Source: an archaeon
GTDB lineage: Archaea > Asgardarchaeota > Thorarchaeia > Thorarchaeales > Thorarchaeaceae
DNA: 11,269 nt
Reading direction: 5' to 3'
NCBI GenBank assembly: GCA_024275415.1
Contig: JAJRZD010000044.1
Location: 1-11,269, forward strand
The notes below the pieces were generated by a model. That model did no database searches. It saw only the letters and a program-made list of their open reading frames with translations, and had not been told where the DNA came from. Each line of letters starts with the position of its first letter. The stretch's first letter is position 1. A program made the translations under genes and the position numbers. Positions 2,815 to 9,879 of the stretch are shown here, piece after piece.

Positions 2815-3186
2815 CTACACTAACTCCTCCGCGTCAGGCTCCCACTCTGGATACACGATGCAAAGAAACTCAAGGCTCTCAGCCCCTACAGACTCAATAT
2901 ACTGTACCGCCTGTGGCGGGATGTATATCGTATCGCCCGGATTGACTTCCGCAGTTTCATTATCGATATGCATGACCCCTTTACCTCGGATGATATAATA
3001 TACCTCAGATGCCTCTTTGAATCGATGGGGAAGTGATGACTTGCCTGACTCTAATGACGCATGAGCAAGACTATACCCAAGAACCAACCCCTTCTCATCA
3101 TGCTTTGGATTCAGGAACTCCCTGACCTTGGTATTGTCGAGAGCAACTATCTCCTGCATATCCTCAAATCTTTTGATTAGCACCAT
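2815..3186 (-). CDS. Cupin-domain protein (Cupin_2-like)
   Basis: 123 aa with cupin motif 1 (SLPHRFKEASEVYYIIRGKG) and motif 2 (VNPGDTIYIPPQAVQYI). GAGAGGGA upstream of the ATG. Confidence 0.88.
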   Translation of the reverse strand: MVLIKRFEDMQEIVALDNTKVREFLNPKHDEKGLVLGYSLAHASLESGKSSLPHRFKEASEVYYIIRGKGVMHIDNETAEVNPGDTIYIPPQAVQYIESVGAESLEFLCIVYPEWEPDAEELV

Positions 3187-3414
3187 TTATCCCTCTCACA
3201 GACTTGGTACTTTGGACAAATATATCTTGTATTTGAACCAATATGCACTCACTCGATGCACTAGAGTTCTTTGGACATCTATCGCCTTTAAGGCAACCTG
3301 CCGCACTTAGCACTTATCGCCGATTTATCTAAAGAATGATAAAGGTTCGACAGTGGAATGGATGCATACACTTCATCGACAGCAGACCTGCTCTAGCGGA
3401 AGGTGACCTATGAA

Positions 3415-5781
3415 ATGTTTTCTGAACGGGTGCGCCATCTTAGAAACCAGAGTGTCAATATCGAGCCCTATATCTCCACAGAACGTGCTTAACTCATTAC
3501 GGATTTCTATCAGAGTGGTGCAGCTGATGCCAAGTCCACGCCTGTTGCCCGTGCACTTGCATTCAAATTCATCATGGAAAACAAGGAAATTTTCATTGGC
3601 GAAGGAGAGCTTATTGTGGGAGAAAGAGACCCTGCGCCAAGAGCCACTCCAACATATCCTGAACTCTGTTGCCACAGTATTTCTGACTTTGAGATTTGTA
3701 ATAGTCGTGTGCGCTCGCGGTTCAAAGTCGATGAGGAAGCAAAAGAAGTGTATCGAGAGGAAATTATCCCTTTCTGGCAAGGAAGGACAATGCGGGACAG
3801 GGTCTTTGAAGAGATGTCAGAAGAATGGATGGCTGCGTTTCAGGCTGGTGTCTTCACAGAGTTCATGGAACAGCGGGCACCCGGTCATGCAATTCTTGAC
3901 GACAAGATATACAATCGGGGGCTTCACGACTTCATTCAGGATATCCGTCACCGTATTGATGACATCGACTTTTTCAATGATCCTGATGCCTACTATAAGG
4001 AACAAGACCTCAAGGCAATGGCTATCGCAGCCGAAGCAGTGATCACATATGCCAAACGACACGCTGACAAGGCAAAGGAATTGGCTGTAGAGGAACCTGA
4101 TCTTCAACGTAAGAAGGAGCTTGAGAAGATTGCCGAAGTGTGTTATAACGTTCCTGCCAACGCACCCCGTGATTTCTGGGAGGCAATCCAATCCTACTGG
4201 TTCGTTCATCTAGGTGTCATAACCGAACTCAACGTGTGGGACAGTTTCAATCCAGGACGTTTGGATCAGCATCTACAATCATTCTATGAACAAGGACTGG
4301 AATCGGGAACGTTGACTCGGGAGTTTGCGAAGGAGCTGTTGCAGTGTTTCTGGGTCAAGATCCATAACCAGCCGGCACCACCTAAGGTAGGAATCACAGA
4401 AGAGGCAAGTGGGACCTATCAAGACTTCTCCCTTTTCAACACAGGTGGAGTGACTGTAGATGGCGAGAATGCAGTCAACGATCTTTCCTATCTCATCCTT
4501 GAGGTCTGCAAGGAGATGAAGCTCATCATGCCGAGCGTTTGCATCCAGCTCAGCACCAAGAATCCTGACACTTTCCTCCTAAAAGCGATTGATGTGGTCA
4601 ACGAAGGATTCGGCCAGCCGTCCATGTTCAACACCGATATCATCATCAAGGAGTTCCTTCGGGTAGGCAAATCGCTAGAGGATGCTCGGAATGGTGGTCC
4701 TAGTGGTTGTGTTACCATCGGCGCCTTCGGCAAGGAATCAGTCATACTGACAGGCTACATCAACTGGCCCAAGATACTTGAGATCACGCTTCACAATGGC
4801 AATGATCCAAGGACTGGGAAGCAGGTCGGGCTGAAGACCGGCGATCCTCGCAGCTTTGAGTCCTATGACCAGCTATTCGATGCCTTCAGGAAACAGCTGG
4901 GATACTTTGTTGATTTGAAGATACAGGGAAACAACATCATTGAGCGTCTGTACGCAGAGCATATGCCCTCTCCCTTCATGTCGGTCTTAATGGATGATTG
5001 CATTAAGAATGCGAAGGACTACCATAGAGGAGGGTCTCGGTACAACAGCACATACATCCAAGGTGTAGGCATGGGCACAGTCACCGACTCTCTTACAGCA
5101 TTAAAGCATCAGGTCTTTGATACGAAACGGTTCACGATGGGCGAAGTCCTTGATGGGCTTGCTACTAATTTCGAAGATAATGACGTTCTCAGACAGACTT
5201 TGATAAACAAGTCCCCCAAGTATGGGAATGACGATGACTATGCAGATACGATAGCTCAGGATGTATTCAACTCGTACTTCGAGATGCTGGACGGGCGTCC
5301 CAATACCAAGGGCGGGCACTATAGAGTAAATCTTCTCCCAACCACTGTCCACATCTACTTTGGAAAAGTGACGGGAGCCACCCCCAACGGTCGTGTAGCA
5401 GGTGCTCCCCTTTCCGATGGCATCTCACCTAGTCACGGCATGGATCTGCAGGGCCCGACGGCTGTGATCAAGTCTGCCGCAAAGATAGACCACTCGAAGA
5501 CTGGTGGCACACTCCTCAATCAGAAGTTCCTGCCAGAGATCCTTGCAACTGAAGAGGGCCGGCAGAAGCTAGCAAGCCTAATTCGTTCTTATTTCGAGCT
5601 TGGTGGACATCATATCCAGTTCAACGTCGTAAGTTCAGACAAACTCCGAGAGGCACAGACCCATCCAGAATTGCATAAGGACTTGATTGTCCGTGTTGCA
5701 GGATACAGCGATCATTTCTGTAACATCGGCAAGGAGTTACAAGATGAGATCATCGCACGTACTGCACATCGTGGGTTCTAA
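3415..5781 (+). pseudogene. Glycyl radical enzyme of the trans-4-hydroxy-L-proline dehydratase (HypD)-like / PFL2 family, interrupted by one in-frame TAA (3490-3492); recent pseudogene or sequence error
   Basis: SD AGGTGA at 3401-3406, ATG at 3415. The frame reads MFSERVRHLRNQSVNIEPYISTERA*LITDFYQSGAADAKSTPVARALAFKFI and continues into the 735-aa ORF at 3574, 788 codons in total. Glycyl loop LIVRVAGYSDHF (Gly codon 5701) and Cys loop SGCVT (Cys codon 4708). Long HypD-like motifs FTEFMEQRAPGH, ELNVWDSF, NQPAPPKVGIT and LPTTVHIYFG. The GRE family call is firm. The functional status is uncertain. Confidence 0.8.
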
Positions 5782-5800
5782 ATTTTGGTCGAGTGGCAAG

Positions 5801-5913
5801 TTTTAAAAACACACCCTGTCCCGTGGCGGCCTGCAGTAAGAATAGCCTAGGCACCACGCCATTCGACGATAATGCCACCACCGCCTAGAGCTGCAAAACT
5901 GCAGGATGATTAT
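5801..5913 (+). promoter_or_regulatory. Putative promoter (TTTTAAAA) and structured 5' leader of the rpl3 operon
   Basis: TTTTAAAA at 5801-5808 is preceded by purine-rich GGCAAG. Nested helices: CCTGCAGT (5830-5837) with ACTGCAGG (5898-5905), and AGCCTAGGC (5844-5852) with GCCTAG-A-GCT (5883-5892). SD-like AGGATGA at 5903-5909. Confidence 0.55.
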
Positions 5914-6921
5914 ATGGCTCATAGAAAGAAACACGCCCCACGTAGGGGCAGCCTAGCCTATCTTCCACGAGGTAAAGCCTCGAAGTTCGTTCCCCGTATC
6001 AAGAATTGGGGCGAGTACAAAGGAGATAGCCCTAAACTGCTTGGTTTTGTCGGCTACAAGGCCGGAATGACTCACGCAGTGGTCACTGTAGACAATCCGG
6101 ATAGCCCATTCAAAGGGCAGGAAACTGTTATCCCCGTAACGATCATCGATACTCCGCCTATCCGGCCATTCTCGATTCGTGGATACACCGCGACTCCCTA
6201 CGGGAAGAAGCTGGTCACTGAGGTGCTGGCGACGAACCTGTCCGATGACCTGCGGAGAGCAATGCCTCTTCCCAAAGACTACGATCAGGAAGCCAAGATG
6301 AAGGAATTCGAGGAAACCCTCGACAAGATTACCGAGGTCAGGATGCTCATCCATACACAGCCTCGGCTTGCTGGGGTTCCCAAGAAGAAGCCTGACATCA
6401 TGGAGTACAAGGTCGGTGCGTCCAGCGTCCAAGAAGCCTTCGAGTACGCTAAGGATATCCTTGGGACTGACATCCGAATCGCTGATATAATCGATGAGGG
6501 GATGCTTGTAGACACCATCGCCGTGACAAAGGGACATGGGTTCCAGGGTCCTGTCCGCAGATGGGGCATCAGGATACTGCAGCACAAGTCTCGCAAGACA
6601 AAGCGAGGCGTGGGTTGCATCGGTCCGTGGACTCCCACGAACATCAGGTACACAGTCCCTCGTCCCGGACAGACAGGGTTCCACACACGCACTAGTTTCA
6701 ACAACGTTGTAGTGAAGCTGGGGGAGCGTGGTGAGGAGATTACTCCCGCAGGCGGTTTTGTCAATTACGGGGTGATACGTGGTGACTACATAATGCTAAA
6801 GGGTTCGGTTCCAGGTCCTGTCAAGAGGCCTATCCGCATGAGATACGCTATCCGCCCGACGAAGGGGCACAGGGGCGAACCCGTGCCGGTGAGCTACATC
6901 AGCACCAGCTCGAAGCAATGA
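5914..6921 (+). CDS. rpl3: 50S ribosomal protein uL3 (archaeal L3)
   Basis: MAHRKKHAPRRGSLAYLPR N-terminus, GYKAGMTH, TKGHGFQGPVRRWG, GQTGFHTRT. Start placed at ATG 5914, 4 nt after AGGATGA. Confidence 0.97.
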   Translation: MAHRKKHAPRRGSLAYLPRGKASKFVPRIKNWGEYKGDSPKLLGFVGYKAGMTHAVVTVDNPDSPFKGQETVIPVTIIDTPPIRPFSIRGYTATPYGKKLVTEVLATNLSDDLRRAMPLPKDYDQEAKMKEFEETLDKITEVRMLIHTQPRLAGVPKKKPDIMEYKVGASSVQEAFEYAKDILGTDIRIADIIDEGMLVDTIAVTKGHGFQGPVRRWGIRILQHKSRKTKRGVGCIGPWTPTNIRYTVPRPGQTGFHTRTSFNNVVVKLGERGEEITPAGGFVNYGVIRGDYIMLKGSVPGPVKRPIRMRYAIRPTKGHRGEPVPVSYISTSSKQ

Positions 6922-6937
6922 TGGAGGATGAAATGAC

Positions 6938-7726
6938 ATGGCAAAGATCAAGACATATTCGTTGAAGGGCAAGGCTGGCTCAGCAATCAACTTACCCCCC
7001 CATTTCGACACTCCCTATCGACCAGACCTCATCAAAAGAGCGGTGCTCGCGTTACAATCGCGTAGATACCAACCTCATGGTGTTGATGAGATGGCAGGGA
7101 AGCGCAATACAGCAGAAAGCTGGCAGACCGGACACGGAAGGTCACGAATGCCCCGCGTCAAGGGAAGCGGGACATCAGCAGCGAACAAAGCAGCGTTCGC
7201 CCCTGGTACTGTCGGTGGACGGGTCGCTCACCCTCCCGAAGCACGAAAGGTTCTCGTGGAGCGCATTAACAAGAAAGAGAATCGACTTGCTATCCGCTCA
7301 GCCATCGCGGCCACTGCCAACAAGGACAGAGTCAGTGAGCGAGGGCACCGGATAGACGACCTTCCCAGCATTCCCCTGGTGGTCGATAACTCTCTAGAAA
7401 CCCTGATCACAACAAAGGAAGTCATTAAAGTTATCGAGAAACTCGGACTGTCCGCTGACCTGCAACGTGCCATCAACGGCCGAGGTATCAGAGCCGGCAA
7501 GGGCAAAATGCGTGGAAGGAAACGAAAGACCCCCAAGTCTTTCCTGATCGTTGTCGGGGAAGACCAGGGCATCGGCCTTGCCGCACGGAATCTCCCAGGC
7601 GTCGATGTAGTCGAGGTACATGGGCTCAACGCAGAACTTCTAGCCCCAGGCACCCATCCAGGTCGCCTAGTGGTGTGGACAGTGTCCGCACTGGAGAGGC
7701 TAGACAAAGAGAACCTGTTCAATTGA
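6938..7726 (+). CDS. rpl4: 50S ribosomal protein uL4 (archaeal L4)
   Basis: YRPDLIKRAV, AESWQTGHGRSRMPRV, GTVGGRVAHPP, AGKGKMRGR, LLAPGTHPGRL. SD GGAGG upstream. Confidence 0.97.
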   Translation: MAKIKTYSLKGKAGSAINLPPHFDTPYRPDLIKRAVLALQSRRYQPHGVDEMAGKRNTAESWQTGHGRSRMPRVKGSGTSAANKAAFAPGTVGGRVAHPPEARKVLVERINKKENRLAIRSAIAATANKDRVSERGHRIDDLPSIPLVVDNSLETLITTKEVIKVIEKLGLSADLQRAINGRGIRAGKGKMRGRKRKTPKSFLIVVGEDQGIGLAARNLPGVDVVEVHGLNAELLAPGTHPGRLVVWTVSALERLDKENLFN

Positions 7727-7736
7727 GGTGAAGACG

Positions 7737-8000
7737 ATGCGTGATCCAAACGAAGTTATCATCAGACCCGTTGTCACAGAGGCTAGCCTCGAAGGTGTGG
7801 ACAGTGAGAACAAACTCGCATTCTATGTCATACGGACCGCAAACAAGAACACTATCAAGTGGGCCGTCGAATCCCTATATGACGTAGTCGTCGAAAAGGT
7901 CAATACCCTCATTATGCCTGACGGTAAGAAGAAGGCATTCGTGCGACTGGCACCGGAGTACAGTGCCGCGGAGGTCGCTACCAACCTTGGTATCTTCTAA
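7737..8000 (+). CDS. rpl23: 50S ribosomal protein uL23
   Basis: IIRPVVTEAS, NKLAFYV, KVNTLI, KKAFVRL, A..VAT.LGIF. SD GAGGTGA at 7725-7731 favours ATG 7737 over GTG 7728. Confidence 0.95.
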   Translation: MRDPNEVIIRPVVTEASLEGVDSENKLAFYVIRTANKNTIKWAVESLYDVVVEKVNTLIMPDGKKKAFVRLAPEYSAAEVATNLGIF

Positions 8001-8012
8001 GGAGGAGTTCAT

Positions 8013-8735
8013 ATGGGTCGTCGGATTTTGGTGCAAAGAAAGGGGCGTGGCACAACGCAGTGGCGTAGCCCCAGTCACAAGAAGATAGCACCCGCGAGGC
8101 ATCCAAAATGGTCACCTGACAAGACTTACATCGGGTCGATCACTAGACTCCTTCACGAATCTGGTAGGGGCGCGCCCCTGGCAGAGATCAAATACGAAGG
8201 TGAAGACAAGCTCCACTATATGGTCGCGCCAGAAGGGGCATACGTCGGTCAGGTCATCGAATGTGGTGAGGACGCGACCCTTGCCAACGGGAACACATTG
8301 ATGCTCATGCACATCCCAGAGGGTACGCCGATATATAATATTGAAGGCAGCCCAGGTGATGGAGGCAAATACGTGAGGTCATCCGGTCTTACTGCGACGA
8401 TCATCTCAACGGACAAGACCAAGTCCATGATTAGGCTGCCCAGTGGCACACAGAAGGCATTCAGTCCACGATGCAGGGCGACTATTGGCATAGTGGCAGG
8501 TGGTGGTCGGGCTGAGAAGCCATTCCTGAAGGCAGGAGCAGTCTGGCATCACACCCGAGGCAAGGCACGGAAGTGGCCTGTGGTTCGTGGTGCAGCCATG
8601 AATGCAGCATCGCACCCGCACGGTGGAGGTTCCCATCAGTCACCCGGAAGGCCGACCACTGTCAGTAGGCATGCGCCTCCAGGGCGTAAGGTCGGCAACA
8701 TAGCAGCACGACGGACTGGTCGCAAGAACAAGTAA
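8013..8735 (+). CDS. rpl2: 50S ribosomal protein uL2 (archaeal L2)
   Basis: MGRRILVQRKGRG, PGDGGKYVRSSG, VRGAAMNAASHPHGGGSHQSPG, PPGRKVGNIAARRTGR. SD AGGAGG upstream. 240 aa is typical. Confidence 0.97.
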   Translation: MGRRILVQRKGRGTTQWRSPSHKKIAPARHPKWSPDKTYIGSITRLLHESGRGAPLAEIKYEGEDKLHYMVAPEGAYVGQVIECGEDATLANGNTLMLMHIPEGTPIYNIEGSPGDGGKYVRSSGLTATIISTDKTKSMIRLPSGTQKAFSPRCRATIGIVAGGGRAEKPFLKAGAVWHHTRGKARKWPVVRGAAMNAASHPHGGGSHQSPGRPTTVSRHAPPGRKVGNIAARRTGRKNK

Positions 8736-8743
8736 AACAGACA

Positions 8744-8781
8744 GAGAAGAGACTCTGCCCTCTTCTCCCCCCTCTCTTTTT
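8744..8781 (+). terminator. Hairpin plus pyrimidine/T-tract immediately after rpl2 (likely operon terminator)
   Basis: GAGAAGAG (8744-8751), 8-nt loop, CTCTTCTC (8760-8767): a perfect 8-bp stem. Followed by a C/T tract ending TTTTT (8777-8781). Confidence 0.6.
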
Positions 8782-9101
8782 CATTGTGGAGTTCATCATA
8801 CGCAGAGGAGTCCAGCAGAGTCACCATGAACAAAGTACCAAATCCAAATGTAGGCGGTTCTAACATCACAAAGAGTGAATCTTCTACTGCGGTTCGGTTG
8901 GTTATTAGCGGCTGTTTCCAACTTGGACATTCATTTGTAGAAATCAAACGGCTGCAGGACTCTGATGCACTCGGTAATCTTTCGCAAAATGAAATCGATT
9001 AGATGTTGGGACTCTGCAAGTCTAGTGTGTATCTATTTTGCCTGAGAGTAAATGTCAAGCTATTTTCTTGCTGAAAACACACGAAAGAGTCCGGCTACTG
9101 C

Positions 9102-9580
9102 GTGAGGAGTCGACTGTTGCTAGCAGAACGTAAAAAACTTGCCAATCTTGTCATCAGGCATGTTAGTCAGGACAGGAATTATGGCAAGACGTCTTGGGGT
9201 AGGTCACGGTTTGGATACCCAACATCATATGCTCAGTCTTTGGTACACATCACGGATATACCGACTACCACTACGTTGAAGTGGAATGAGGTGCTTCCTC
9301 CTAATCCTCTGACCGACCCTAGTCAACCGTCTTACGAATGGTATCCCACTGGGATGACGCCCCCTCTATCTATATCTCACAACTTCTTCAGGTCAACAGA
9401 AACGCACTTTTTCGCAATAGTTCGTCATCAGCGTTTGAATTTGGATGGTGGTTAAACACTTATGTTCGCTACGACGATAATTTCCATTGGGTTTTTCCAG
9501 TGTTTGTAGGTTGGACAATATGGGAATGCAATATCTATGCCTATGATGATAGCGATTTTTATCTTGCTAATGGGGGATGA
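9102..9580 (+). pseudogene. Probable frameshifted remnant of a Trp/Tyr-rich hypothetical protein
   Basis: ORFs 9102-9455 and 9338-9580 overlap. Adding one C in the C5 run at 9360-9364 joins them as ...SYEWYPTGMTPPSIYISQLLQVNRNALF...FEFGWWLNTYVRYDDNFHWVFPVFVGWTIWECNIYAYDDSDFYLANGG*. The stop is directly followed by a terminator-like repeat. The 5' end is unclear. Confidence 0.4.
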
Positions 9581-9584
9581 AAAG

Positions 9585-9622
9585 ATGGAGAAGAGAGTCT
9601 ACTCTCTTTCCCGTTCTTTTTT
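9585..9622 (+). terminator. Hairpin plus T6 tract upstream of cdrS
   Basis: GAAGAGAG (9590-9597), loop TCTA, CTCTCTTT (9602-9609): 7 Watson-Crick pairs plus 1 G-U, extendable past one mismatch. TTTTTT at 9617-9622. Confidence 0.5.
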
Positions 9623-9699
9623 CAATCCCTACCTTATCCTATCCCTGTATTACTTACAGCCATATCCCTCTATGACTCCAGATTCGTAGAGGCTTACCT

Positions 9700-9879
9700 A
9701 TGCGTCTAATAGCTGTGCATTTACCTGACAAACTGGTTGAAGACATCCAAGAGCTGATTGACAAGGGTCTCTACCCGAACCGTTCTGAGGCTATCCGGAT
9801 TGCTATTCGGGATCTTCTGAAGCAGGAACTATGGGGACGCAATGCCGCATTCAACAAGGTGAGTGAAGTCATAAGATGA
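9700..9879 (+). CDS. cdrS: Small CopG/ribbon-helix-helix transcription regulator, CdrS-like (59 aa)
   Basis: Manual translation: MRLIAVHLPDKLVEDIQELIDKGLYPNRSEAIRIAIRDLLKQELWGRNAAFNKVSEVIR*. It has an alternating N-terminal beta strand and the G.YPNRSEAIR.A.RDLL motif. Its stop overlaps the ftsZ start (ATGA, 9876-9879). Just under the ORF-track length cutoff. Confidence 0.88.
   Translation: MRLIAVHLPDKLVEDIQELIDKGLYPNRSEAIRIAIRDLLKQELWGRNAAFNKVSEVIR

Follow-up and report, generated by a model that had tools for sequence, protein, structure and literature searches.

The DNA analysed here, hereafter the window, is the whole of contig JAJRZD010000044.1 (11,269 nucleotides), one of the 127 contigs of a 3.5-Mb metagenome-type assembly that is 92.9% complete (G000), and close protein relatives from sequence searches are labelled Candidatus Thorarchaeota. 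It carries a gene for a glycyl radical enzyme (GRE) of the HypD family in which the glutamate two residues after the thiyl-forming cysteine, Glu436 of Clostridioides difficile HypD, is replaced by a threonine (Thr434 of the window protein, whose residue numbers are those of C. difficile HypD minus 2). Judging from the alignments, the unusual point is the loss of this Glu within an otherwise complete HypD active site, and Thr434 is fixed and selected in the clade to which the gene belongs. The chances appear about even that the Thr-type enzyme is still a 4-hydroxyproline-type dehydratase, in which Asp276 would serve as acid and base and Thr434 together with His158 would hold the leaving hydroxyl. 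The window copy itself is interrupted by a stop codon and is probably a very recent pseudogene or variant allele rather than a working gene.

The encoded protein belongs to the GRE superfamily, with a PFL-like barrel (PF02901, 1.3e-217) and a C-terminal RVxG radical domain (Gly_radical, PF01228, 2e-37). It reaches 1240.8 bits with the NCBIfam HypD equivalog NF043068, over the cut-off of 1100, and is thus a protein that databases name hydroxyproline dehydratase, the name that its relatives bear in public records. Among solved proteins its best relative by phmmer is C. difficile HypD (6vxc, 1002 bits), followed by glycerol dehydratase (519 bits). The structural comparison with HypD that a preliminary description of this DNA had proposed was made with an AlphaFold2 model (predicted local distance difference test score 90.8), which matches 6vxc in Foldseek with a template modelling (TM) score of 0.98, a root-mean-square deviation of 1.3 Å and 55% identity, the TM scores against solved GREs ranging overall from 0.88 to 0.98. 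The identity of ~55% to C. difficile HypD (6vxc/6vxe) spans the entire protein, and the active-site segments align without indels.

The thiyl loop of the window protein has the motif GCVTIG, opposite GCVETG in C. difficile HypD, and direct reading confirmed the Cys codon TGT (4708-4710) and the Thr codon ACC (4714-4716) that had been pointed out previously. The phmmer alignment to 6vxc is free of gaps around the loop (sgcvtigafgke in the window opposite sgcvetgcfgke in HypD) and also sets giteeasgtyqdf of the window opposite gitlkesstytdf, which bears out the reported difference between EEASGTYQDF and LKESSTYTDF in a neighbouring loop. The glycyl and thiyl sites are the same in the two proteins and every described substrate contact is identical except Glu436. 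In particular, the set devoted to substrate binding and acid/base chemistry in HypD (H160, D278, S334, D339, F340, Y450 and T645) is found unchanged in the window, whereas the CXE motif of characterised HypD is absent, and the residues proposed from an offset of -2 (F150, H158, D276, S332, D337, F338, C432, Y448, L641, T643 and G763) all proved identical. Over 118 Thr-type and 118 Glu-type relatives, little or no variation occurs in either type at the HypD-numbered residues F152, R156, H160, D278, K326, S334, D339, F340, C434, Y450, L643, T645 and G765. The predicted substrate pocket is thus HypD-like, i.e. proline-like, in agreement with the substrate class first proposed. The idea that E436 alone had been swapped held for the substrate contacts and failed beyond them: compared with C. 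difficile HypD, the clade also shows T437 changed to I or V, Y445 to C or V and A411 to V or I, in addition to ~25 other diagnostic positions.

The Thr-type is widespread among the relatives of this protein. The 120 closest cluster representatives at 90% identity share 71-84% identity with the window protein and nearly all measure 787-788 amino acids; 118 of them display GCVT[IV][GS] and two GCVEIS. An enlarged search brought the Thorarchaeota clade to 148 representatives, with Thr in 143 and Glu in five, whereas Glu is present in all 118 HypD homologues from other Asgard lineages and bacteria. The Thr-type representatives are intact genes, and the Thr is written ACC, ACA or ACG at orthologous loci. 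The expectation that GCVT would mark a coherent clade of intact genes is therefore borne out, with 143 Thr-types in a monophyletic group and three synonymous codons. Comparison of orthologues indicates strong purifying selection, synonymous sites being saturated (proportion of synonymous differences, pS, 0.77-0.88) and non-synonymous differences few (pN 0.09-0.22). These data bear on the idea that Thr is a sign of decay and that all members of the clade are GRE relics, inactive or non-catalytic. The loss of a residue essential in C. difficile HypD and the lack of an adjacent activase speak for it; the 143 intact representatives with saturated synonymous and few non-synonymous changes, the invariance of the entire pocket along with the radical Gly and the Cys, and the retention of an activase in a genome with no other PFL-like GRE found speak against it. 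It is extremely improbable, and the conservation data effectively refute it.

The history of the residue was examined with a FastTree phylogeny of 245 sequences and an IQ-TREE phylogeny of 51 sequences under LG+C20. The Thorarchaeota clade is monophyletic in both, with support of 0.965 and 100, respectively. Its basal lineages possess Thr, the five Glu-types fall into two groups nested apart from each other (P0113/P0393/P0406 and P0098/P0392), and well-supported branches force three changes at residue 436. The approximately unbiased test, on groups defined by trait after a first tree had been seen, rejects the monophyly of the Thr-types (delta log-likelihood 139, p 4e-46) as well as a single clade of the five Glu-types (delta log-likelihood 76, p 6.5e-6). 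The simplest history would be one change from Glu to Thr on the Thorarchaeota stem, then two independent reversions from Thr to Glu; Glu as the ancestral state within the clade would need ~10 parallel two-base changes.

Over the whole protein, HypD position 411 (Ile409 in the window) is the sole other column that tracks residue 436 in both reversions. Canonical HypD has Ala at this position, the Thorarchaeota Thr-types have Val (135), Ile (6) or Thr (2), and Met occupies it in 5/5 Thorarchaeota Glu-types, which come from two separate clades. This pattern points to residues 411 and 436 forming an epistatic pair. Gene conversion, considered as a source of the joint Glu and Met reversions, left no signal: over a 40-codon segment the third-position identity is 0.475 between the Glu lineages and 0.375-0.45 with Thr-type relatives. 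Arg428 was also considered as a partner of Glu436, and its apparent coupling in two sequences was lost after three more Glu-types were added.

The Thr and Glu forms share more than their position in the tree. The GRE gene is located directly upstream of rpl3-rpl4-rpl23-rpl2 in the window (3415-8735), in all of the 11 other Thr-type loci examined and at one Glu-type locus, L049 (the rpl3-adjacent loci include L012, L013, L017, L018, L020-L024 and L049). The P0098-type Glu locus, in G018, is located elsewhere, with an activase ~1.7 kb away. Two HypD-like genes were never found in one of the 41 genomes searched, and the Thr and Glu types never occur together in these. From their sequences and positions, the Thr and Glu forms are orthologues, with a locus shared by the Thr-types and one of the two Glu lineages. 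The different chemistry or bulkier substrate that the preliminary description had put forward for the Thr-type finds no support here: the two forms are orthologues, the residue flipped back twice and none of the genomes searched has both, which agrees with a compensated change within one physiological role no less well than with a new reaction.

The gene context departs from that usual for HypD. Neither an activase nor proC was found in the window, L012, L013 or L049, and no activase is nearby at any of the 11 Thr-type loci or at L049. However, many bacterial hypD genes lack proC (PMC6219649), so this context is not strictly defining. The canonical HypDs of other Asgard lineages (Atabeyarchaeia, Njord-, Heimdall-, Hod- and Odinarchaeia; e.g. 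P0272-P0314) share archaeal hosts, length and pocket with the window protein, at 58-61% identity, but keep GCVE[TVA]G, with the activase directly upstream at two of the three loci checked (L026 and L027). The move of the GRE gene away from its activase seems to coincide approximately with the loss of Glu.

A potential activase is nevertheless encoded in the genome. G000 has a single PFL-type activase, on C30, which exceeds the cut-off of TIGR02494 with 323.9 bits and is adjacent to another GRE. A single orthologue of it is encoded in each of five relatives (52-68% identity), the activases of the six genomes being mutual orthologues. In G020 (93% complete), the Thr-type is the sole PFL-like GRE found and one PFL-type activase is retained, which presumably serves the Thr-type and argues that this is an active radical enzyme. 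We infer that the activase of the G000 type activates enzymes of the window type.

Two further GREs were noticed in G000. One, of 781 amino acids with a GCVEP loop, lies at C21:22743-25064 (L002) between aminotransferase-like and PfkB-type kinase-like genes; the other, of 808 amino acids with a GCLEN loop, lies at C30:79421-82332 (L003, L004) beside the sole PFL-type activase. Both are uncharacterised, unrelated to the window GRE and below every NCBIfam equivalog cut-off.

Several more distant GREs help to place the loss of Glu. HpyG and HpzG (8id1, 8iof), which are N-methyl-cis-4-hydroxyproline dehydratases, and HplG (7vua), a trans-4-hydroxy-D-proline C-N lyase, act on hydroxyproline derivatives and share the overall fold of the window protein (TM 0.94-0.95). 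They are not its nearest relatives, having 30-32% identity to it and retaining the Glu of CXE (PMC13450708), and HpyG and HpzG score 442 and 439.5 bits against 1002 for HypD. An N-methylated hydroxyproline, which had been suggested as a substrate, is not favoured, because its known enzymes are distant (31-32% identity) and keep Glu. The other GRE 1,2-eliminases (glycerol and propanediol dehydratases, CutC, IslA/IseG and HpsG/HpfG) have in common with the window protein a PFL2-type fold, a single Cys loop and radical elimination, at 32-36% identity. In these enzymes the general base that acts on the substrate hydroxyl is proposed to be Glu, whereas in HypD, and by analogy in the window protein, this position is faced by the leaving group. 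In HypD the Glu does not serve as general base: the leaving 4-hydroxyl donates a hydrogen bond to it and His160 tunes it, and the role proposed for Asp278 is to take a proton from the amine and to give one to the leaving group (PMC7077986). As the Glu is a hydrogen-bond partner of the leaving hydroxyl, its loss is less drastic than had been assumed. Outside the HypD family such a loss is not rare: in a library of representatives at 50% identity, ~39 of 131 full-length PFL2-like GREs (P0122-P0271) are without Glu at Cys+2, so that it is only within the HypD family that the loss stands out; this family forms one cluster in the library (P0122), too coarse for a fine tree. Thr occurs at Cys+2 in two clusters unrelated to HypD (GCVTM and GCVTP), and most of this diversity is uncharacterised.

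Because the whole pocket is kept and the Thr and Glu forms are interchangeable orthologues, dehydration of a 4-hydroxyproline-type compound is the most likely activity; we infer what its substrate and product are and what part Thr434 plays. In intact relatives, the single PFL-type activase of the genome, encoded elsewhere, would place a radical on Gly763, from which it would be transferred to Cys432, and the resulting thiyl radical would take a hydrogen from C5 of the substrate. The latter would be held in the unchanged HypD pocket by Ser332, Tyr448 and Thr643 on the carboxylate, by Asp276, Asp337 and a water on the amine and by Phe338 on the ring. Asp276 would act as base and then as acid, water would depart from C4, and Thr434 with His158 would assume the hydrogen-bonding role of the absent Glu.

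Several observations weigh against this proposal. E436Q is inactive in C. difficile HypD (PMC7077986), so that the carboxylate is important, in that enzyme at any rate. Conservation of the Thr is strict and the residue is tied to position 411; hence the replacement was not a neutral one and may signal altered specificity. About 29 diagnostic substitutions lie on the stem of the clade, some of them beside active-site residues (T161A, V162I, E333Q, T338Q and Y445C/V); almost all of them are also carried by the Thorarchaeota Glu-types and are therefore marks of the clade rather than of the Thr. No recognised sink was found for the expected product, 1-pyrroline-5-carboxylate (P5C): proC (TIGR00112) exceeds its cut-off in none of the 31 genomes of the GTDB family of the window, the model matching in 14/14 control genomes, and neither ornithine cyclodeaminase (PF02423) nor a P5C dehydrogenase equivalog was found in G000. 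This genome has just two aldehyde dehydrogenase family genes, and its four class-III aminotransferases could be users of glutamate semialdehyde. Finally, no archaeal member has been assayed.

Some of these observations would also be expected if the Thr-types were a functionally shifted subfamily, still acting on a proline-like compound but with another substrate, leaving group or radical reaction, for example on another stereo- or regioisomer of hydroxyproline or on a 4-substituted proline whose leaving group is ill-suited beside a carboxylate. The only changed substrate-contact residue is the one touching the leaving group, the Thr is invariant in its 143 representatives and tied to position 411, and a long branch forms the stem, on which diagnostic changes lie beside H160, S334 and D339. 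The inactivity of E436Q HypD, the lack of ProC in the 31 family genomes and the new locus apart from an activase, when canonical Asgard HypDs keep the two genes adjacent, can be read in the same way. Yet the clade contains two reversions to Glu, one of them at the same locus, no genome has both types, and the contacts with the carboxylate, the amine and the ring are all unchanged. Nearly all stem substitutions are shared with the Thorarchaeota Glu-types instead of being tied to Thr, no neighbouring pathway or transporter genes indicate another substrate, and N-methyl-hydroxyprolines are already served by distant CXE enzymes. Such a shift is less likely than an unchanged role, yet it is a serious alternative.

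A more specific form of this idea, to which we give somewhat less credence, is that Thr together with Val or Ile at position 411 defines an undescribed GRE activity of Thorarchaeota, acting on a different 4-substituted or isomeric proline or leaving the leaving-group chemistry to His158 and Asp276 alone. If it were true, the two reversions to Glu and Met would be switches back to ordinary hydroxyproline dehydration, and the Thr-types would be the first functional class of GRE eliminases without the CXE Glu and the first archaeal PFL-like GRE with an assigned function.

The window gene is interrupted at codon 26, where an in-frame TAA stands in place of a conserved Glu. Among 28 relatives this region reads ERAEL in 26 and has Lys for Glu in two; at 11 orthologous loci the codon is GAA or GAG in ten and AAG in one, so that a single G-to-T change explains the stop. 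A reassignment of TAA was ruled out, as TAA also terminates this gene, rpl23 and rpl2. No internal stop was found in any other orthologue from 41 related genomes. No second lesion occurs in 762 codons of the window gene, which deviates at one of 326 near-invariant columns (G72D), as is typical of intact members, and its lineage-specific non-synonymous rate (dN) is ~0.057, that of its sister being ~0.045. Apart from the stop, there is therefore no sign of the relaxed selection that would have weakened the case for the Thr. Because no further decay is visible in the gene, the lesion is either very recent or an assembly error. An error of assembly or consensus, behind which the gene would be an intact and working Thr-type, is possible though less probable than a real lesion: it agrees with the lack of any other lesion, the single deviating column, the dN close to that of the sister and the origin of the contig in a metagenome-type assembly, whereas single-base substitution errors are uncommon in consensus assemblies and loss of the orthologue is frequent. 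The orthologue was not found in three of the seven genomes of the genus and 13 of the 25 of the family, which suggests that gene loss is common. The start of the relatives is the Met homologous to ATG 3415, and the database entry for the window gene (P0001) is the 735-amino-acid product beginning at Met54.

According to a 2026 review, all GRE eliminases and isomerases characterised so far keep CXE and the function of no archaeal PFL-like GRE is known (PMC13450708), and our literature searches found no paper characterising the Thr-type Thorarchaeota clade. This clade represents a large, naturally selected set of HypD orthologues without Glu, and its two natural reversions, with position 411 as the single coupled site, constitute a natural experiment on the role of Glu in HypD-type chemistry. 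It also bears on annotation: although they lack a residue essential to the reference enzyme, members of the clade score above the cut-off of the HypD equivalog and appear as hydroxyproline dehydratase in public records. The enzyme is present in about half of the sampled genomes of one Thorarchaeota family of sediment archaea, and may bear on the use of hydroxyproline-rich material by these organisms.

Table 1. Features of the window related to the GRE gene, with their positions, strand and basis
Feature	Position	Strand	Basis or remark
HypD-family GRE gene, 788 codons	3415..5781	+	Translation; start ATG 3415, terminal TAA 5779-5781, single internal stop at codon 26
Shine-Dalgarno-like AAGGTGA, 8 nt 5' of ATG 3415	3400..3406	+	Direct reading
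In-frame TAA, codon 26, in place of conserved Glu (ERAEL)	3490..3492	+	Direct reading
Downstream ATG (Met54), start of the truncated 735-aa product for gene callers	3574..3576	+	Open reading frame list
His158 codon (His160 in HypD, where it partners the loop Glu)	3886..3888	+	Invariant in 118 Thr-type and 118 Glu-type relatives
Asp276 codon (HypD Asp278, proposed acid/base)	4240..4242	+	Invariant in both types; role from PMC7077986
Ile409 codon (HypD position 411), co-varying with residue 436	4639..4641	+	Column comparison
Segment from codon 427, encoding GGPSGCVTIGAFGKES	4693..4746	+	
Thiyl (Cys) loop PSGCVTIGAFGKESVILT	4699..4758	+	Cys432 4708-4710, Thr434 4714-4716
Gly763 codon in RVAGYS, glycyl radical site	5701..5703	+	Gly_radical domain; residue invariant
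Cupin, 123 aa, divergent neighbour of the GRE gene	2815-3186	-	

The divergent cupin gene was considered as a conserved partner of the GRE and rejected: its orthologues (72-80% identity) occur close to the GRE solely at the two loci checked from the same genus (L012 and L016), no cupin occurs at L013 or L049, and the cupin located between the GRE and the activase in G018 is unrelated to that of the window at E 1e-3. Downstream, the longest rpl3 frame begins at ATG 5872 and encodes 349 amino acids (the part in question being 5872-5916); since the products of relatives measure 335-336 amino acids, ATG 5914 (MAHRKKHAPRRGS...) is the likelier start. The rpl cluster is followed by cdrS and ftsZ in the window, L012 and L013. 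The distance between rpl2 and the small ribbon-helix-helix gene (cdrS-like) that precedes ftsZ is ~130 nt in L012 and L013, and the gap between rpl2 and ftsZ is ~1.1 kb in the window (8736-9875), which seems to hold ~0.85 kb of extra gene-poor DNA.

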